Shown here in pieces: positions 25,771 through 60,765 of a DNA stretch of 64,000 nucleotides. The notes beneath the pieces were generated by a model. The model saw nothing but the letters and a program-made list of their open reading frames with translations. It ran no database searches and had not been told where the DNA came from. The position numbers were made by a program, and so were the translations under genes. The DNA is from a bacterium (GTDB taxonomy: Bacteria; Patescibacteriota; Patescibacteriia; JBAXGH01), in NCBI GenBank assembly GCA_037139515.1, contig JBAXGH010000003.1, forward strand, positions 12,800 to 76,799, written 5' to 3'. Numbering within the stretch: the stretch's first letter is position 1; every line of letters starts with the position of its first letter.

Positions 25771-25810
25771 AAAGCTGACTATTACGAAAAATATTCTGTA
25801 TTCACGACAC

Positions 25811-25838
25811 TTTCAAGATCCCTCGGATTCGGGATGAC
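25811..25838 (-). repeat. Inverted copy of the dispersed ~28-bp repeat GTCATCCCGAA(G/T)CCGAGGGATCTTGAAA
   Basis: The reverse complement of 25811-25838 is GTCATCCCGAATCCGAGGGATCTTGAAA. That is 27/28 identical to 53466-53493 and shares the core with 55755-55777. Confidence 0.6.
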
Positions 25839-25860
25839 GCAGGGAACCGAAAGGAAGGCT

Positions 25861-25944
25861 CGAGGCGAGCGATTTTGGTCGTACTCTGCGCCGGACACTG
25901 CGCCCCAACGTGTCCGCCGCAGAGTACGCCAAACCGCGCTCGCG
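25861..25944. repeat. Long GC-rich imperfect palindrome 3' of alaS
   Basis: Inner stem GTACTCTGCGCCGGACAC / GTGTCCGCCGCAGAGTAC (18 bp, 1 mismatch) with loop TGCGCCCCAAC. Outer arms CGAGGCGAGCG...GGTC / GCCAAACCGCGCTCGCG extend the pairing. Confidence 0.55.
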
Positions 25945-37345: not shown

Positions 37346-37448
37346 AGAGATTATTCAGCAAATACGGGCCTTTTTAAGATGGGCACAGTATAGTGATTGA
37401 AAAGCAAAAAGGCAAATTACCTTTCGGGCAATACGCGAGCGCTGATTT

Positions 37449-37502
37449 GGGCGTGTGTGTGGCGGGCACGTTGGGGGCGCAGTGCCCGGCTCACACACGC
37501 CC
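37449..37502. repeat. GC-rich imperfect palindrome 3' of glmS
   Basis: GGGCGTGTGTGTGGCGGGCAC - gttgggggcgcag - TGCCCGGCTCACACACGCCC, about 20-bp stem with 2 mismatches. The loop is the reverse complement of CTGCGCCCCCAAC, the same loop motif as at 25899-25909. Confidence 0.55.
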
Positions 37503-37637
37503 AATATCGCTCGCTTCGAGCCAACACCTTTCTGCTTGGCTTTTATCACCATCAACGTGTGGGACGGAAATAAACACACAAAAAATCCCGCGACGGATTT
37601 TTCACTTCCATCGCGGGTACGCTACTTTCAACACACT

Positions 37638-52404: not shown

Positions 52405-53232
52405 TTATTTTCGCGTATTAAGTTTTTTGTTTTCTGACTGTTTTAAAAAATTATGTGCAGTGACGATGGATCTGCCGAGTCGAGCTTCAAGCTTTTTGCG
52501 CGCACCGCCGGCAATTTCGCCGCCAACCAGCGCATCATCTTTGAGCTTTGATACGCCTTTTGAATCCTCGACGCGATGAATTTCGGTCGTGGCGCGCTCT
52601 CCGAGCATATTAAAAATCAGCTCTAAATCATTCATGTGATCCCGCAGGCTTTCGCGTTTCAAACCTTTCAAATCCTTATATTCGCTTGGTGTGACGCCGA
52701 AAGTCGCTTTTGAAATCTCAGCCGTCAGAATCTCAAAGTCGCGATCTTCCTCCGCGCCACGGTTCTTCCATTCATCAGTCAGTTCTTCACGAATCGCGAT
52801 ACCGCGGAGGCGCTTTTCAATCCAACCCTCGCTATATCCTTTGAGTTGATACAAAGCACGGGTGCGCTTGGTAGCCAGTTCCGGATCCTCGATTTCCTGG
52901 ACGCGTTCATAGCCGACTTTAGCGAGCCAACGTTTGAAAGGCTCGGCTTTCGGGGAGTGAATGGATTGAATAAGACGGAAGACACTTTCGGTATTGGCAC
53001 AATTTATTTTTTGCGCGCCCCCGACGGTTTGAATATCAAGGGGGGTGGCAATTTGCCCCCACCCTTTAGAAAGTTCCGGATCACGCCGTCGCATGTCTTT
53101 CAGATATCCCTCGGGTTGAACCGAGTCTGTCAGCGCCGCCACAATATCAACGATCACAAACCACCATTCGTTTTGATGAATAGTTTTTCTGATTTCTTTG
53201 CCCTTGAAAAGTGATATTTTGATGTGTTGCAT
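52405..53232 (-). CDS. Bro-N / DinD-like (DNA-damage-inducible protein D family) protein
   Basis: N-terminal KGKEIRKTIHQNEWWFVIVDIVAAL is a KilA-N/Bro-N-type motif. The C-terminal region parallels E. coli DinD (ELKEHNK-like helices, GYSEGW, GERATTEI). Confidence 0.5.
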   Translation of the reverse strand: MQHIKISLFKGKEIRKTIHQNEWWFVIVDIVAALTDSVQPEGYLKDMRRRDPELSKGWGQIATPLDIQTVGGAQKINCANTESVFRLIQSIHSPKAEPFKRWLAKVGYERVQEIEDPELATKRTRALYQLKGYSEGWIEKRLRGIAIREELTDEWKNRGAEEDRDFEILTAEISKATFGVTPSEYKDLKGLKRESLRDHMNDLELIFNMLGERATTEIHRVEDSKGVSKLKDDALVGGEIAGGARKKLEARLGRSIVTAHNFLKQSENKKLNTRK

Positions 53233-53355
53233 ATATTTGTTTGAAAAAACACAAATAAGAGCTGGAAAATATTTTCCACCCCCTCAACACGAAGATAATT
53301 ATATCGCTGTCTATTTTTGATGCAAAGAAATACTGTGGATATACACTCTACCTCT

Positions 53356-53487
53356 TAGCTGTCACCCCGAGCCCTCCTATGCTGTCATCCTGGACCTCGC
53401 CGTCGTCATCCCGAAGCCCCCCCGCTGTCATCATGGGTCTCCCCGTCGTTACCCCGAGCCCCCTGCTGTCATCCCGAAGCCGAGGGA
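53356..53487 (+). repeat. Tandem array of six degenerate ~22-bp repeats (consensus about GCTGTCATCCCGAAGCCCCCC)
   Basis: Units start at about 53356, 53379, 53401, 53422, 53444 and 53462. The last unit, TGTCATCCCGAAGCCGAGGGATC (53465-53487), is identical to 55755-55777. Confidence 0.7.
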
Positions 53488-53500
53488 TCTTGAAATGTGG

Positions 53501-53761
53501 TTATAGTTGTAGCAGTTCCGGCAAACACTCCCCTTTTTTGTTGTTTATTGCGATAAGATAGAGGTCCTCAACTTTGGCGCGAGCCCACGGCGTTTTGCGC
53601 AAAAACACGAGACTCGATTTGATGCTCGGGTTCGTGGTGAAACACTTGATTTTGATTTTTCTACCCAGCTCTTCAAAGCCAAAATGCTCCACGAGATATT
53701 CGAGGATCATGAGCAGGGTTTTGCCGTGTAACGGGTCTTTTTGAGTAGAAATCGGGTTCAT
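53501..53761 (-). CDS. DUF2132 (VF530-like) family small protein
   Basis: KDPLHGKTLLMILEYLVEHFGFEELGRKIKIKCFTTNPSIKSSLVFLRKTPWARAKVEDLY matches the conserved DUF2132 core (KDPLHG..TLE...L...YGWEEL...I.I.CF..DPSIKSSLKFLRKTPWAR.KVE.LY). Confidence 0.6.
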   Translation of the reverse strand: MNPISTQKDPLHGKTLLMILEYLVEHFGFEELGRKIKIKCFTTNPSIKSSLVFLRKTPWARAKVEDLYLIAINNKKGECLPELLQL

Positions 53762-53876
53762 GGGGAGACTATATCATGAGCAGTGTGGATCACGAAAGCG
53801 CCCCAATCATGGCATTGACTAATACCAATAATTGCGCTAATCTCCGCCATGGATTCACAAACAAAGGAGTTCCGCC

Positions 53877-54698
53877 ATGCAGAGAACGCAAGCACTTGAA
53901 CAACTCAAGGAGTTCCGGGATTACACAATCGCTGACGATATAAGGCAGTGGATTCGACAGATAGAAGAAAGACCCGCTGACGCTGCACGTTACGCTCCGG
54001 AATTCTGGCCCAGGTTTAGCGCCACCATGAAGAAGCTGATGTACGCAAGCAGCTTCATCACCATCGCTCTTCTAATCATCGCCGGCCTTGTGAAGTCACC
54101 AGCCGACATAGAAGCTATGCTGCGTCATGGATTCTCCGGAGTCGTCATCGTCTCTATGTGGTACGCACTTCACACGATTCTTACACGTGCGACAAAGAAG
54201 AATCGGGAAGACGCCCGACGGAAATCGCAAGCGCGGATCGAAAGCAACCCGGCGTACGTCCGGGCCAAGCGGATGCTTCTCGCGATTGCTGAGTTTGAAA
54301 GACAGCGCGAACAATTCCTGATGTTTTCCGAAGTCAGAGAAATGGGACTCGCGAGGCAGAGCGATGAGCTGTACGAGCGCACGGCCGACAGACTCAACCG
54401 TTTTCTTGGCTCACTCAACCGCATGAGCAGGATGATGAGCTACTCAAGCCTAGAGCGACTCTACGAGCTGTACGAAAATCGCCAAAACGCAAAGCTCGAC
54501 GGTTCGGATGCTGAGGGCCGTGAAGCGATGCGCCTCATCATGGCGGAAGGCAAGAAGGGTTCAGAGCTGCCGCTCCTCGAGTTCGAGGATCTGGAGAGGA
54601 TTCTGGAGGATGAAGATATCTTCCGCGAGATTGAGGCCGACAGTCTGGAAAACAGGATTGCGGCTCTCAAACAGCCGCCGGAAGAGAATAAAGATTGA
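53877..54698 (+). CDS. Hypothetical protein with central TM helices and an Arg/Glu-rich C-terminal region
   Basis: 273 aa with two hydrophobic helices (FITIALLIIAGLV, FSGVVIVSMWYALHTIL); no family recognised. Confidence 0.4.
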   Translation: MQRTQALEQLKEFRDYTIADDIRQWIRQIEERPADAARYAPEFWPRFSATMKKLMYASSFITIALLIIAGLVKSPADIEAMLRHGFSGVVIVSMWYALHTILTRATKKNREDARRKSQARIESNPAYVRAKRMLLAIAEFERQREQFLMFSEVREMGLARQSDELYERTADRLNRFLGSLNRMSRMMSYSSLERLYELYENRQNAKLDGSDAEGREAMRLIMAEGKKGSELPLLEFEDLERILEDEDIFREIEADSLENRIAALKQPPEENKD

Positions 54699-54769
54699 TG
54701 TAGCTCGTGACAAGATACGAATCGCCCGCGGCGCTTGGCCCCGGGCGATGTTTTTTATCTGGTTTTTCT

Positions 54770-55642
54770 TTAGACGCCAATTTTCCAAACATTCTTTTCA
54801 AGGAATGCCTCGATGGTTTGTCTTTTAGCTTTATTGATCAAACTTGAATGTGAGATTCCGCTCATCTTTGCGTGTTCGGCGAGTGTCATAATTTTTTTTC
54901 CTTCTAAATACGCTAACCGTTTATGGTAGCTACTCGTGAGCGCCTTCCCCACCATTTCTTCCATAATAACGGTCGCGCCTTTCGTATCAAATTCTCTGAA
55001 CGCTTCGTAATATTTGCTCCTATCAATAAACTTGATATTCACGGGCACAAAACCTTCACGAATCAATAAATAGTTATTCAGCACCCGACCTATTCGACCA
55101 TTTCCGTCAACAAACGGATGCGTATACTCAAAAGTCAGATGCAGCCTGGCGATACGTTTAATGATGCTTTCGTGGCTCGAAGCCCCGTATTCGATCAGCA
55201 TTTTTTGGAGACGCTCAGTAATTTCTTTCGGATTTGGAGCAATATGACTTCCGACACGTACAAACTCATCATCTTTTCTGAATCTTCCGGCAACATCATC
55301 GCGAATATTCGAAATCAGCATTTTGTGCAAAAAAAGCATCACATCGAGCGTCAACTCCTGTTCTTTAGCCCGAACATCTATATACGAAACAACGCGCGCC
55401 AGATTCTTGGCTTCAAAAATCTCACGTTCAGTGATGTATCTATCCAAGTCGACTTGAAGAAGAATCTTTTCAGTTTCTTCAAGCGTCAGTGTACTATTCT
55501 CGATGGCATTTGAGTTATAGACCTGCTCCGCCACCTCGGCTTCAGAAATAAGCTTAATCAAAGCATCTTTTCCTTGAGCTGCTTTATAGTATCTTTCGCG
55601 CAAAGAATTGATTTTACCAAATACATTGAGTGTTTTAGCCAT
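54770..55642 (-). CDS. Fic/DOC family protein (class II, N-terminal inhibitory motif), probable AMPylase
   Basis: Fic active-site motif HPFVDGNGRIGR. The N-terminal SNAIEN matches the (S/T)xxxE(G/N) inhibitory helix, and there is a C-terminal wHTH-like region. Confidence 0.85.
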   Translation of the reverse strand: MAKTLNVFGKINSLRERYYKAAQGKDALIKLISEAEVAEQVYNSNAIENSTLTLEETEKILLQVDLDRYITEREIFEAKNLARVVSYIDVRAKEQELTLDVMLFLHKMLISNIRDDVAGRFRKDDEFVRVGSHIAPNPKEITERLQKMLIEYGASSHESIIKRIARLHLTFEYTHPFVDGNGRIGRVLNNYLLIREGFVPVNIKFIDRSKYYEAFREFDTKGATVIMEEMVGKALTSSYHKRLAYLEGKKIMTLAEHAKMSGISHSSLINKAKRQTIEAFLEKNVWKIGV

Positions 55643-55731
55643 ATACCAGGATTATACACGATTTTCACGGTTTTGTCCACATAAACGTGAAAAGCATGGT
55701 TTTTAAGCCATGTTTTCACGGTTATGATGAT

Positions 55732-55777
55732 CGTTGTCATCCCTGCCATCACGTTGTCATCCCGAAGCCGAGGGATC
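55732..55777 (+). repeat. Two-unit copy of the ~22-bp repeat, ending in the same 23-bp sequence as 53465-53487
   Basis: CGTTGTCATCCCTGCCATCA then CGTTGTCATCCCGAAGCCGAGGGATC. Positions 55755-55777 equal 53465-53487 exactly. Confidence 0.7.
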
Positions 55778-55785
55778 CAGTCACT

Positions 55786-56256
55786 TTAGTTATCAAAAGT
55801 AAACCCAAAGCCTCCCCCGCGAAGAAAAATAATGAATTCCTTTATCAACTCCACAGAGATTCCCCTGTTTGCCGAAACGAATCCACCTTCAGTCATTCCT
55901 TCGACGAGCAATATCGGCATTTTGGTTTTGGCCGAGCTTTCAATATCACCAGGCAATTCGATAAGCATTCGTTCCAGAGCATCAGCCCAGTTTTTGGCGT
56001 CGTCAGCAAAGATGCTCTTTGTATATTTATAGTCTATCGGATCGTAATCATTTTCATATCTGCCGACTCTCGCCCACTCATCCCACGAACTTCTCCCCGG
56101 AAGAGTTCCGGCTGATTTCCAACCATTCTCCCGCCCCAGCCTCAAAAGCTCGTTCCAGACATTATAGTGACAATCGAAACAACGCCTATGTGATTTTATC
56201 GGAGTCTCTCTTGGATTCTGAACAGTTTCATCCCACGTTTCTACGATAAATGCCAT
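55786..56256 (-). CDS. Hypothetical protein
   Basis: 156 aa, Trp-rich; the C-terminus is encoded partly by the repeat sequence. No family recognised. Confidence 0.35.
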   Translation of the reverse strand: MAFIVETWDETVQNPRETPIKSHRRCFDCHYNVWNELLRLGRENGWKSAGTLPGRSSWDEWARVGRYENDYDPIDYKYTKSIFADDAKNWADALERMLIELPGDIESSAKTKMPILLVEGMTEGGFVSANRGISVELIKEFIIFLRGGGFGFTFDN

Positions 56257-56660
56257 ATATTTGATTTTACGCGATTATTAAGACCAATGTTCTTCCACGG
56301 GAAGATGTTTAGCCGACCCGTTCGACGTTTGGAGGAACGCAAAAAGTGGCCAAGAGATTTGACCCGATGGCACATGAATGCCCCGGATGAAATCTCCCAA
56401 CCACTTAAGTGATCAGTCTCGGTCTCATTTATGGTTTCCAGCAGATTTCCCTGGTTGCCTACCCACGAGCCTGCGTTTATGGCGCAAAGCTGTGGGAATG
56501 AGTCGAGGTTCGCATGACTTTATGCGCGAACTACATCTCTTTTTTACTTCTTACTTGGAGAGTATACGGGGGAATTGGGGGCTTGGCAAATCATTTGCCA
56601 TAACATAATCATGAATTTGACAGATTCTTATCCGGCGACAATGCCTCGCATCCATAAATA

Positions 56661-57017
56661 TCAACGAGTGCGCCGATACGGCTTCAGTCCATCAATTTGT
56701 TGTTGAAGCCGAAGCTCGGTTTCAGCTTGACTTTTTCTTACCTGCGTCATTTCTTCGAAATACTTCGACCATGTATCGTTCACTTCATTAGTAGATCGCG
56801 TGTGAAAGAAGATAACCTCAACCGCAACTGTAACCAGGATTAGAAACGCTGCAAACAATACCGCGTAAACTACGTTTCGATTTTCGCCCTGTTGCTCTTT
56901 AATATCTACCCTAATGGCTGTAACTTCTATTGCGAGAGACTTAAGTGCTGCCTCGGTGAGAGGAATTGTCGGTGGTGTGTTTGAGGGCAAGTTCGGATCA
57001 GAGGTACTTGTAATCAT
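56661..57017 (-). CDS. Small single-TM protein, last gene of the defence operon
   Basis: 118 aa with one TM (VVYAVLFAAFLILVTVAVEVIFF). It overlaps the upstream gene by 4 bp (translational coupling). Confidence 0.45.
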   Translation of the reverse strand: MITSTSDPNLPSNTPPTIPLTEAALKSLAIEVTAIRVDIKEQQGENRNVVYAVLFAAFLILVTVAVEVIFFHTRSTNEVNDTWSKYFEEMTQVRKSQAETELRLQQQIDGLKPYRRTR

Positions 57018-57241
57018 ACGCCTGATTGATAAAAGCCTTTTATAACCAAAACGCTCCCCTGATCCTCTCCTGCGATATCAAGATTTTTATATTCCTGAAA
57101 ATTGACACCGCCGAGAGCAACGCCGGAGCCAAAAGAGACTCCGGGGCCGACTATAACCCCGTTCACATTAATCGCCCGTAGAGGCGTAAGCGTCCCATCA
57201 GGATTCTCCTTAAAAACAGAAAAGAATCTGTATCTCGTCAT
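57014..57241 (-). CDS. Small hypothetical protein, third gene of the defence operon
   Basis: 75 aa, Gly-rich (GPGVSFGSGVALGG). It overlaps the methyltransferase gene by 4 bp. Confidence 0.4.
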   Translation of the reverse strand: MTRYRFFSVFKENPDGTLTPLRAINVNGVIVGPGVSFGSGVALGGVNFQEYKNLDIAGEDQGSVLVIKGFYQSGV

Positions 57242-60200
57242 AAAGTTGTTTGCACTATACTCAAACGTCCGTTAGATTTTTCTAAATTAACACCCGTTTC
57301 TAATTCTGCGAGCTGATTCAGCGTGAGCCCGAGAGCACTTTTTAGTCCAAAGACAGCATCAAGCAATTGACATTCGATACTATTAAATTCCTCGCGTACT
57401 CTTAAATATGATTTGCCCTCTTCACCGTCAGATTCTCTCTTTAAGTGAAGAACGATCGACTCGCTCTCTTTGGTAATATTAACAATCTGACAATTATCCC
57501 TATCTAGAAAATCCGACGCACCCTTGAGCGTATGTGCGACGTCTCCAACACGAAACAATTCATTTATTTTCATAAAGTGTTTTTTATTCTCGATGATTTC
57601 TATTTCTGCAGGAGTAAAGCCGTAGAGTTCATAAACCATATGATCGATCTGATTTTCAAGGATATCAGTATCGGCTTTAGAATTGGATTGTTTCATAACT
57701 ATAATCTGGTCAACAATCAATTCAATCTGAGTGGAAATCTCTTTTTGTAGTGGTGAATCTATTATTGGAACCCGCACCTCTCGTAAGTGCCTAGGGTAAA
57801 AGTGCAAACCATTCGCAAACAGCTCTGCAAAATACCACGAGGACACCCTACAGTTTAAAACTCCGAGCATGTATCTAAGACTGTACTTTCTCGAATTTGA
57901 TATTTTTTCATCAGTAAATACGGATTTCAACTGACGATATTTCAATCCTCTTAGGATGTAATATGGAACGGCGTTTATGAGTGCGTCATTATTATAAAGC
58001 CCATTAGTATCCAACACCGCCTGTATTCCAGATCTGCCGACTATGTTTTTTACTATAATCTTTTCAGCCTCAAAAAGTTCTGGAAAAACAGGAGCTTTGT
58101 GCTTCTCTGGCTCGTAACTTAAGTACTTAATTTCATTTATTGAGTATCGATCGAAATATTTTCCCTCAATATACATCTTGAGCCCGGGCGAAAACTGATC
58201 CCTGATATATTCTTCTTTCTTTATCTGGTTCACAGTACTATGAAGTTCTGCACCTTTTGAAATATATAAAATATCGTCCATTACTATAGATAACGACTGA
58301 ATCTTCTTTAACAGCTTGATTTTATCTACAGACAGACTGATCTTAAAGTTTCTCTCTTCATTAAGCTTAAAGAATTTCGTATTTATTTGGGTCATTTTCA
58401 GTTCATCAAGTCTTGGAACATCCCCACTTTCATGAAAATAGATATTTAAGTCATAGTCATGCCGCTGTTGAATTTTTTGTATCAATGTAATTTGAGTATC
58501 AACCATTGCTGACTTGAAAACTCTATATGCAGAGAAATCGATTAGACTTATTATTTTATAGCCCAAAAAAATATTTCTAATTCCCTGGCCATATGATTGA
58601 GCCATCCATTTGTTGCTTGTTATATAAGACAGAACGCCTCCATCCTTAAGCAGATTGAGTCCGCGCTCATAAAAGATTATGTATAAATCATAATGTCCAT
58701 TCGCACTTAAATAGTTCTTCTCGAAATACTTTTTTAATAGGTCATCTATCTTCCAGATGCTTACATACGGCGGATTGCCGATTACAATATTAAAACCTTT
58801 CACACCAAACATGAACTCAGCGTCAAAAAACTGACACGAATTTTCACTATCAAATGGTAAATAGGTTTTCAACTGTTTAGTTTTTTCCGACGACCCGAAT
58901 AGACCTTCCTGCTGTTGTTGCAAAGACAAGAAGTCTGCTTTCAATCTTTTCTTTTTAGTAATGCTTTCCGTTTTAAAATATTCGTCTCGAATAGCCTGTA
59001 TCTCTTTAGCGAGATGAGTAGAATTATCACCAAGCATGACTGCGCTCTTTCCTGTTTGAAGAGGTAACAACGTATTCGCACACACGAACTTGAAATCCAA
59101 GTTCGGCAACGGTTCGATGCCCATGTTTTTTGCTTTTGGATTTAGTTCTTCATCAACTAAGATGGAAAGCCATGCTCGGAGGCGGGCAATATCTATTGCC
59201 ATCGGCTCGATGTCGACGCCGTAGAGGTTATTTTTTATAATCGCGAGCTTGGTTTTATAGACATCAAAGCGCGTTTCAAGGCGCTCATATATTGAAAGCA
59301 TGAGCTGCAACATACCCATCGGAAAGGCACCGGAACCGCAGGCGGGGTCGAGGATCTTCGCATCATCCAGCGCGTCAATCAGATATTTCTTATAGGGTGT
59401 AAGGTCTTCTCGATAATTACGGTTATCAAACTCGTGCTCTTTTTTGTCCAAAAGCAACTCAAGTATATGGGAGCGCTTATTATCATCCGGCAACTTCCCC
59501 TCCAAATACGCGCGCATGCTCTCGCGGCACATGTAGTCTACAATTTCACGCGGGGTGTAAAATGCACCTTTCGCCTTGCGCGCCTGCTCGCCAGCTTCAT
59601 CCGTCTGCTCGGCAAGTAAGTTCTCAAAAATGCGCCCTAACATCTCCGGATCGATGGCGACTTGCTGAAACGTACTCGTGCTTTCGTCTGTCGTAAAATT
59701 ATATTGATTGAGAGCCGCAAAAAAACGATCAAAATAATCTTTCGGAAAATTAATCTTCGTTTCACCGAAGTGATCCGTTGGGCGTGGCTCAAAAAGCCCG
59801 CCGTTCAGATATGGTGTCTCTGTATCCGTTGAGAACAAGTGTTTTGGTGTTTCAACTTTACCAAAAAGATCACGTTTGACGCCGGATTGGCGCTCACGAT
59901 CTTCTAATGGGGTATTTAAGACCTGAAAAAAAAGTTTTTCGAGTTTTGCGCGGTAGTATTCTGACGAGGCTATGCTTTCGGTCTCAAAATATTTATGAGC
60001 ATCAGCAATAATTCCCTTTCGCCGCAGGAACCAGCAGAAGATTAAACGACCAATAAGGCGGTTTGCAAAGAGCCGCGCATGTTTCTTATCAAAAATTTCT
60101 TTTGTCGACACATGCTCCACGAGCTCCGCGAAGAATCCAGCAATTTCCTGATAGAACTTTTTATTGAGCGGTTGCAGGTCAAAACTCTGCCAGATCATCC

Positions 60201-60765
60201 CGTGAACTTCAGCTTTTTTTGTAAAATCAAAAGGACCTTCCCATTTTGCGAGAATCTCTTGTTGGGTGACGGTTAACGCTCCGTGTAACTCGAGGGTACG
60301 GATTGCGTATTTGTTAGAAAGCACGAGAACGACACGATCTGCCTCTTTTGGAACGATAATGTCAACACCAATCGGCTCATGCGCAAAAAATGGTTCATCC
60401 TCAAAGTTTGGAGTCAATGCAACGACGGCTGAAATGATGCGTTTGGAGGTTTTTTGTACCCAATACAACTTAAAATCAAGATTTTTGCCATTCCCTTCAG
60501 CAACCTTGTAGCAGGCGCGACGATCACTAAACCCAGCCGCCTCCATAAACCAACCCGCATGATCACGGATCTTTCCCTTTGAATCATTAAAAGGCTTTGG
60601 AGAAGTATCTGCCGCAACACCAAAAAGACCCGAGATTGCATTCGTCACCTCAAGAGCATGAGCAAATGATGGCTCGGCAGACAACTTCAAGAGAGCCTCC
60701 TGAAGCAGTTTTAACTTTACTGGAATATTATTTGTTGTCCTTGGCATAATAGAGGATTCCCTCAA
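57238..60765 (-). CDS. Type IIG/PglX-like N6-adenine DNA methyltransferase (gamma class) with a large N-terminal helical region and a C-terminal target-recognition region
   Basis: MmeI/PglX-type helical linker blocks are present (LIGRLIFCWFLRRKGII, FFQVLNTP, YLNGGLFE). Methyltransferase motifs follow: GAFYTPREIVDYM, ILDPACGSGAF (motif I), NIVIGNPPY (motif IV), then about 450 aa of putative TRD. The N-terminal PD-(D/E)xK-like region appears degenerate (LDFKLYWVQK). Confidence 0.8.
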   Translation of the reverse strand: MRESSIMPRTTNNIPVKLKLLQEALLKLSAEPSFAHALEVTNAISGLFGVAADTSPKPFNDSKGKIRDHAGWFMEAAGFSDRRACYKVAEGNGKNLDFKLYWVQKTSKRIISAVVALTPNFEDEPFFAHEPIGVDIIVPKEADRVVLVLSNKYAIRTLELHGALTVTQQEILAKWEGPFDFTKKAEVHGMIWQSFDLQPLNKKFYQEIAGFFAELVEHVSTKEIFDKKHARLFANRLIGRLIFCWFLRRKGIIADAHKYFETESIASSEYYRAKLEKLFFQVLNTPLEDRERQSGVKRDLFGKVETPKHLFSTDTETPYLNGGLFEPRPTDHFGETKINFPKDYFDRFFAALNQYNFTTDESTSTFQQVAIDPEMLGRIFENLLAEQTDEAGEQARKAKGAFYTPREIVDYMCRESMRAYLEGKLPDDNKRSHILELLLDKKEHEFDNRNYREDLTPYKKYLIDALDDAKILDPACGSGAFPMGMLQLMLSIYERLETRFDVYKTKLAIIKNNLYGVDIEPMAIDIARLRAWLSILVDEELNPKAKNMGIEPLPNLDFKFVCANTLLPLQTGKSAVMLGDNSTHLAKEIQAIRDEYFKTESITKKKRLKADFLSLQQQQEGLFGSSEKTKQLKTYLPFDSENSCQFFDAEFMFGVKGFNIVIGNPPYVSIWKIDDLLKKYFEKNYLSANGHYDLYIIFYERGLNLLKDGGVLSYITSNKWMAQSYGQGIRNIFLGYKIISLIDFSAYRVFKSAMVDTQITLIQKIQQRHDYDLNIYFHESGDVPRLDELKMTQINTKFFKLNEERNFKISLSVDKIKLLKKIQSLSIVMDDILYISKGAELHSTVNQIKKEEYIRDQFSPGLKMYIEGKYFDRYSINEIKYLSYEPEKHKAPVFPELFEAEKIIVKNIVGRSGIQAVLDTNGLYNNDALINAVPYYILRGLKYRQLKSVFTDEKISNSRKYSLRYMLGVLNCRVSSWYFAELFANGLHFYPRHLREVRVPIIDSPLQKEISTQIELIVDQIIVMKQSNSKADTDILENQIDHMVYELYGFTPAEIEIIENKKHFMKINELFRVGDVAHTLKGASDFLDRDNCQIVNITKESESIVLHLKRESDGEEGKSYLRVREEFNSIECQLLDAVFGLKSALGLTLNQLAELETGVNLEKSNGRLSIVQTTL

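Follow-up and report, generated by a model that had tools for sequence, protein, structure and literature searches.

A short dispersed hairpin repeat is probably a short-stem, NTS-like member of the Ssn-related motifs

The closest described counterparts of the repeat analyzed here are the NTS of Neisseria (encompassing dRS3), which are defined as CGTCATTCCCGCGMAVGCGGGAATCYRG and belong to a wider class, the Ssn-related motifs or SRM (Chenal et al., Nat Commun 2025, PMC11893778). Their biochemical partner, SsnA, is a 94-aa single-domain GIY-YIG protein that binds NTS on ssDNA only, and on one strand only, and that cuts a few nucleotides upstream of the motif (PMC11893778). Cleavage requires the three nucleotides (GTC) that precede the palindrome, and binding depends most of all on the C that directly follows it (PMC11893778). 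Most ssn genes have their motif on their flanks, the CDD family cd10448 defines Ssn, Rickettsia is listed among the SRM-rich genera, and the overlapping dRS3 is the integration target of Neisseria filamentous phages (PMC11893778).

The window, which is the whole 64,000-nt stretch of DNA analyzed here, carries the 22-mer GTCATCCCGAA[G/T]CCGAGGGATC three times, at 25817-25838 (minus strand), 53468-53489 (plus strand) and 55756-55777 (plus strand), while 100 dinucleotide shuffles of the window yielded 0 matches (chance expectation, 0). The full 28-mer, GTCATCCCGAAGCCGAGGGATCTTGAAA, occupies 53468-53495 (plus strand) and occurs a second time at 25811-25838 (minus strand) with one mismatch, a G to T change in the loop; the 22-mer core, GTCATCCCGAAGCCGAGGGATC, appears again at 55756-55777 (plus strand), or as 23 nt when the T before it is included. 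These measurements confirm the 28-mer family of the preliminary description, with its three window copies, one inverted, and its 27/28 identity, as well as its 23-nt portion at 55755-77, which is the T plus the 22-mer core. It had placed one 28-mer correctly at 25811-25838, but the other, given as 53466-53493, lies at 53468-53495.

Copy 1 (25811-25838, minus strand; GTCATCCCGAATCCGAGGGATC followed by TTGAAA, with the G to T loop variant) is intergenic, with alaS on one side and, on the other side, a 104-aa gene that lies ahead of infA and rpsM; its pyrimidine-rich 5′ flank at 25839-25850 (minus strand) reads cggttccctgc. Copy 2 (53468-53495, plus strand; GTCATCCCGAAGCCGAGGGATC followed by TTGAAA) is intergenic as well and begins 5 nt past the stop codon of a minus-strand VF530 gene. 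Copy 3 (55756-55777, plus strand), where the 22-mer core runs into CAGTCA, lies between a 156-aa ORF, whose 3′ end faces it, and the 5′ end of a minus-strand Fic gene. A fourth copy, GTCATCCCTAAGCCGAGGGATCTT, has one mismatch and is found 296 nt to the left of the window's start on the same 87-kb contig (L027; ENA ERZ27300037 k141_428766, whose positions 1581-65580, reversed, are the window). The source encodes an AlaRS of 596 aa and has a ribosomal operon of compact form, a gene content that suggests a CPR/Patescibacteria-like organism.

Copies 2 and 3 are located within a defence/mobile island (52405-60765) that contains genes for Bro-N, a VF530 DNA-binding protein, Fic, several orphan ORFs, a PLD-SNF2 helicase and a ~1150-aa MmeI/Eco57I-like type IIG restriction-modification enzyme, and GC content is down to 0.40-0.43 at 56-60 kb of the window. 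The presence of two copies in a defence island is reminiscent of the clustering of Neisseria NTS around variable genes. We also compared independent short-read contigs of the same population (SRR7053541, Logan; L001, L026 and L100) with the window at 53470, ~25887 and 55778, respectively, and observed that two of them end precisely at copies 2 and 3, and that the third ends ~50 nt away from copy 1. Because multi-copy repeats break assemblies in this way, the breaks fit a high copy number, either in the genome or in the community.

The element is composed of GTC, a 5-bp stem with arms ATCCC and GGGAT, an 8-nt loop (GA-AGCC-GA) and a final C. The small hairpin proposed for its core therefore exists, but with the 5-bp stem ATCCC/GGGAT rather than a 6-bp GATCCC/GGGATC. 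Folded as DNA, the hairpin has a free energy of -2.8 kcal/mol, which is not better than shuffled sequences; consequently, folding energy alone gives no argument for structure. Covariation does. Across 765 kb of collected sequence, all 126 matches to GTCAT-N3-GA-N4-GA-N3-ATC have complementary triplets, and these are of five types (CCC/GGG, GCT/AGC, GTC/GAC, CCT/AGG and CTC/GAG). When any loop length is allowed, triplets are complementary in 182 of the 601 matches, compared to 9.4 expected, and the variant series with a free loop comprises CCC/GGG, CCT/AGG, TCT/AGA, GTT/AAC, GCT/AGC, GTC/GAC and TCC/GGA, with inner loops GA-AGCC-GA, GA-GCGAAGC-GA and GA-GCAAAGC-GA. The covariation of the stem triplets, with a constant GTC before them and a constant C after them, supports a hairpin that is under selection. 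Both ends, GTCAT and ATC, recur with covarying triplets across the sister variants, and the GTC gives the element its orientation. Every variant in the GTCAT...ATC frame is closed by GGGAT-C or by the corresponding covarying sequence, with no other 3′ base seen; as the search patterns prescribed the 3′ C, this shows consistency and not independent conservation.

The order of GTC, palindrome and C in the window repeat matches the functionally mapped layout of the NTS. Like NTS and SRM, it starts with (C/T)GTCAT, its palindrome begins at AT and a C stands after the palindrome; it is likewise oriented, dispersed in multiple copies and clustered, and it shares a repeat-gene-repeat layout with a ~95-aa single-domain GIY-YIG gene. 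It also forms an imperfect, hairpin-forming palindrome within the 20-50 nt that characterize an SRM, with a 5-bp stem and compensated triplets. Moreover, a near-canonical Neisseria-type NTS, CGTCATTCCCGCGAAGGCGGGAATCCA, stands immediately beside 22-mer copies in three contigs (L030, L034 and L065), and a one-base variant of it stands beside the copy in L045. None of the three window copies matches the published SRM string, HGTCWYN(0-2)YYVSBRHN(0-5)WNVSBRGN(0-2)RNCYNB, because its inner stem positions require S-B-R. That string was hand-built from 29 genomes (PMC11893778), and therefore the mismatch limits how far the repeat is an SRM as the paper defines it, and not the match in architecture.

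We scanned one genome per GTDB species (596 Gb) for the 22-mer with its loop position free and found 25 exact copies in 23 genome loci, compared to ~0.3 chance matches expected in 596 Gb by our own arithmetic. Eleven exact copies are on two contigs of a Candidatus Harrisonbacteria MAG (nzgw427), which is not the source of the window, as its copies are spaced differently, and the further hosts are three Saccharibacteria MAGs, six Acidobacteriaceae MAGs and one Ruminococcus MAG. A metagenome scan provided 62 additional contigs with the 22-mer, mostly from one sample (Ga0194060), and contig L044 contains 7 copies in 13.5 kb. The repeat is present in many dispersed copies, above chance, in the window, on the Harrisonbacteria contigs and on L044. 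The Ruminococcus-type contigs (L009, 7338-7359; L031, 1645-1666) have an exact 22-mer that codes for GSLGFGMT in an AddA-type helicase; since these matches fall on the conserved LGFG motif of the helicase and are without the family's flanks, they are probably coincidental.

In total, 118 copies were gathered, and their aligned contexts have unique flanks and sharp borders. A T is found at position -1 in 99 of the 118, and the family-wide 5′ flank is YYYYTGTT, a pyrimidine-rich run followed by GTT. The tails differ by lineage: TTGAAN in the window and in Ga0194060 (41/118 copies), TC.. in Harrisonbacteria and TGCAGT in Acidobacteriaceae. The suggestion that the repeat is REP-like is borne out, insofar as its copies are scattered, have a defined orientation, form hairpins and stand in unique sequence, and the wider search for copies and conservation that was called for yields exact copies well outside the window. 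A coincidental resemblance or a duplication confined to this locus, for which one could cite the mere three copies in the window and the coincidental look of the L009 and L031 matches, has a negligible probability given the empty shuffles, the excess of exact copies, the flank preferences shared among the 118 and the exact copies in both genomes and metagenomes. The outcome that would have spoken against the preliminary description, no copies elsewhere and no conservation, is not the one observed.

The data also links the repeat to a protein. Six-frame motif search and Pfam gene lists revealed no GIY-YIG gene in 72 kb of source contig, made up of the window and the adjoining 8 kb, and six-frame motif search revealed none up to 4 kb away from the 25 copies in genome loci. 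Among the metagenome contigs, three have a GIY-YIG gene near an exact 22-mer (L033, L086 and L072). The L033 gene sits between inverted copies, one 77 nt upstream and the other 48 nt downstream, and the downstream copy has the G to T loop variant of window copy 1. A further gene, on contig L090 from another sample, was found via the protein, which is 88% identical to that of L033; here, the 22-mer copy on the 3′ side of the gene is the same as in L033, and a loop variant is on the 5′ side. The variant form of copy 1 accompanies the GIY-YIG genes of both L033 and L090. In L086, four copies are found within 640 nt, the ATG of the gene begins 6 nt after ...GGGATCTTGAAT, and a five-unit half-unit array resembles the array of the window. 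In this most tightly wrapped gene (L086, 2074-2361), the codon for the conserved Gln of REKQLK is replaced by an internal TAG, and the gene is a pseudogene or contains a sequencing error. In L072, the 22-mer is 210 nt upstream of the gene and other GTCAT-hairpin types are closer, so that a cognate pairing of nuclease and 22-mer is putative.

The partner proteins of L033, L072 and L086 are 95-101 aa long, with PF01541 as their sole match (E-values of 1e-13 to 1e-16). The GIY-YIG catalytic residues, including Tyr, Tyr and Glu, are retained, with Y8, Y18, R28, H32, E65 and N84 invariant, and the spacing of 47 from Tyr18 to Glu65 is equal to that of Y17/E64 in Nm SsnA. Their closest PDB relative is a UPF0213 protein, 1zg2, at an E-value of only 3e-4. 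A database search with the L033 protein returned 318 homologues, typically ~95-130 aa long and several of them on very short contigs, including one named from a Patescibacteria MAG. Ssn-like genes with related sister hairpins were found in L091, L092 (a Patescibacteria MAG) and L097 (another MAG), and no hairpin was found near the L094 homologue. When all ORFs within 600 nt of the 118 copies were clustered all-against-all, GIY-YIG was the only small, normally rare family to recur, and no transposase or integrase was recurrent. The earlier proposal of a recombinase or regulator binding site goes in the right direction as to a protein site, but what accompanies the repeat is a small nuclease of the GIY-YIG type and neither a recombinase nor a regulator. 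Taken together, we consider that the repeat is probably a short-stem, NTS-like member of the SRM and a putative ssDNA site for an Ssn-type nuclease encoded elsewhere.

Several steps would follow from this assignment. When the GTCAT strand becomes single-stranded, during replication, repair, DNA uptake or conjugation, it would fold into the small hairpin. A small single-domain Ssn-type GIY-YIG endonuclease would then bind the hairpin and cut a few nucleotides upstream, putatively ~4 nt 5′ of GTCAT by analogy with Neisseria SsnA (PMC11893778). The cognate nuclease of this genome would be encoded outside the 72 kb of source contig, and its activity may modulate recombination or incoming ssDNA, as in Neisseria.

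Two behaviors of the repeat are present here and not in the description of the Neisseria system (PMC11893778): upstream arrays of half-units and in-frame insertions within genes. Directly upstream of copy 2 is an array of five degenerate half-units of 20-23 nt (53361-53467, plus strand), each with GTCAYCCCGAGCC, a C/T-rich stretch and GYT, for which TRF reports a period of 43, equal to two units, with 78% matches; a single degenerate half-unit, GTCATCCCTGCCATCACGTT, is upstream of copy 3 (55736-55755, plus strand). Across the family, degenerate 5′ half-units of ~20-24 nt, composed of GTCATCCCGRGC, a C/T-rich stretch and GTT, stand ahead of 38 of 113 copies, in numbers from one to five, and in no case come after a copy; a GTCAT-like start is located 17-24 nt upstream of 29 copies. 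The half-unit array of L086 is at 2430-2546. The array is less stable on folding than its shuffled counterparts (z = +1.9), and tandem arrays receive no mention in PMC11893778.

About 15% of the copies are within long open frames, where the in-frame 22-mer is translated as VIPKPRDL, HPEAEGS or SLGFGMT. In an IleRS gene (L060, 2229-3038), alignment with the Thermus structure 1ILE places a 27-residue insertion at the element, between YPFE and FPADFIAEG, and the insertion is made up of decayed half-units and the core. Other in-frame copies were observed in LeuRS (two, L080), a class I aaRS (L032), Dus (L011, 3151-4218), a UvrD-like helicase (L011, 5619-8000) and ABC-F (L007, 3735-5192); pairwise alignment of the L007 ABC-F gave no clean insertion. 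One could read the arrays of half-units, together with the copies inserted in frame into essential genes, as footprints of GIY-YIG-driven copying, with Ssn/SRM being an ssDNA-based mobile element that has a GIY-YIG 'transposase' and colonizes CPR and Acidobacteriaceae. We regard this speculative extension as unlikely. If it were true, the identical 22-mer in different phyla would mark recent horizontal spread.

Mobility of a more conventional kind would involve another enzyme, with the repeat as a mobile element or an attachment site. A DDE transposase could mobilize it as a MITE, a Y1 transposase of the RAYT/IS200 type could mobilize it as a REP, or an IS110/Piv-type integrase could use it as a target. 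The copies are indeed dispersed and clustered, form mosaics with other hairpin repeats and occur within genes, and dRS3 in Neisseria offers a precedent as a phage integration target (PMC11893778). However, a target-site duplication of 3-6 nt was found at no tested boundary, the length is only 22-28 nt, and transposase or integrase families do not recur beside the copies, where GIY-YIG is the sole specific recurrent partner. A collection of 2.9 million viral contigs held 0 exact copies. We also joined the flanks of every copy and searched for empty sites, which returned filled sites only. A conventional mobile element is therefore very unlikely, and the MITE-like label, in particular, lacks support in view of the short length, the missing target-site duplication and the lack of a transposase among the recurrent neighbors.

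The hairpin could alternatively act at the RNA level, as a REP-like terminator, 3′ stabilizer or processing site that is independent of any nuclease. Stem covariation is also compatible with an RNA hairpin, many copies are intergenic, and copies 2 and 3 are just 3′ of minus-strand ORFs. Yet the stem is not followed by a T-run but by TTGAAA, CAGTCA, TC.. or TGCAGT, a terminator scan found nothing at the element, and the hairpin is weak. With respect to neighboring genes, the GTCAT strand has the same orientation 75 times and the opposite orientation 55 times (p = 0.095), which is no significant bias; copies are found at both 5′ and 3′ gene ends, as well as in the open frames described above. 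Rfam searches gave nothing relevant, either for the whole window with gathering thresholds or for the three sites with a cutoff of E ≤ 1, and no tRNAs were found in the window. Finally, a plain hairpin would leave the invariant, asymmetric GTC...C flanks unexplained. We hold a function in RNA to be quite improbable, and the structured RNA motif that had been suggested is not supported, given the absence of an Rfam match and of a strand bias, and the in-frame copies inside genes.

A promoter or regulator site, with the TTGAAA tail serving as a -35 box or the palindrome as the binding site of a transcription factor, draws on copy 1, where TTGAAA, a 17-nt spacer and TATTTT (window 25788-25816, minus strand) form a sigma-70-like arrangement ~20 nt upstream of the ATG of the 104-aa gene, and on the frequency of TTGAAN tails (41/118). 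But only 3 of the 40 scorable TTGAAN copies have -10-like hexamers at 16-18 nt, the same as at other offsets; copies 2 and 3 are directed into the 3′ ends of convergent genes, the L086 gene starts at an ATG just 6 nt past the element, and some copies are inside coding regions. As a general explanation, a regulatory site is highly improbable; the TTGAAA of copy 1 may be an exapted outward -35 box, which does not generalize to other copies.

Next to copy 1 is a ~80-nt GC-rich hairpin (25865-25943). The GC-rich palindrome that had been noted beside this copy is accordingly real, but it belongs to a separate repeat family. Its second window copy (37435-37514) has no adjoining 22-mer; the termini and loop are conserved between the two, and the stem differs and is fully compensated. 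The family plan is GCGAGCGCGGTTTGG, a variable stem, GGCGGRCA, the loop, TGYCCGGC, the complementary variable stem and CCAAAATCGCTCGC. More than a dozen copies were found in metagenome contigs, with stems that vary between copies and are always compensated; copies were observed in L030, L032, L040, L048, L064, L066, L080, L085 and L087. The ~80-nt hairpin often adjoins the 22-mer, on either side, and the two form BIME-like mosaics. It matched no known family, and Rfam gave sub-threshold miRNA models only on the long palindrome.

Assignment to the NTS-like SRM places an anonymous repeat of a CPR-like small genome in a family with a known biochemical partner, and it broadens the Ssn/SRM system by lineages and by a motif shape that are outside the published search pattern. 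It also supplies natural repeat-gene pairs (L033 and L086). On the current view, CPR bacteria rely on taking up DNA; the dynamics of their genomes could therefore be influenced by an ssDNA nuclease that acts at defined hairpins to edit DNA during entry or replication. Neither half-unit arrays nor insertions in aminoacyl-tRNA synthetases are described for the SRM family, and both may hold clues to how such repeats multiply. The repeat is of moderate interest, and chiefly for its host range and its array and in-frame behaviors.

Among other known systems, REP/BIME sequences and their RAYT (Y1 HUH) transposases combine short, oriented extragenic palindromes, mosaics, a partner gene flanked by its own repeats and the recognition of ssDNA hairpins. 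The window repeat is similar in its oriented short palindromes, its mosaic clusters, its repeat-flanked partner gene and its putative recognition as an ssDNA hairpin. Unlike REP/RAYT, its partner is a GIY-YIG nuclease and not a Y1 transposase, no RAYT-like neighbor recurs among the 118 copies, and its 5′ signature is GTC(AT), compared to the GTAG of REP. Rickettsia palindromic elements (RPE), reportedly described by Ogata and colleagues in 2000, are said to be ~100-150 bp long and specific to Rickettsia. They share with our repeat a palindromic form, reduced host genomes and the tolerance of in-frame copies by housekeeping genes (in our case those for IleRS, LeuRS, Dus and the UvrD-like helicase), and RPE and SRM, with RPE compared by description only, may be related, as Rickettsia is SRM-rich. 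Stable DNA mini-hairpins of the d(GCGAAGC) type have reportedly been characterized by Hirao and colleagues. The sister variants with a GA-GCGAAGC-GA or GA-GCAAAGC-GA loop resemble them, which fits a structure at the DNA level, whereas the window variant has the shorter GA-AGCC-GA loop.

The comparison with Neisseria is the closest, with further differences. The stem of the window repeat is 5 bp, compared to 7-8 bp in the NTS, and encloses the conserved GA-AGCC-GA loop; unlike the NTS-ssnA-NTS arrangement, the window itself is without a nuclease gene; and the hosts are CPR/Patescibacteria-like organisms and Acidobacteriaceae, neither of which appears in the text of PMC11893778. The repeat is real, conserved and structured, and it is not a new kind of system.
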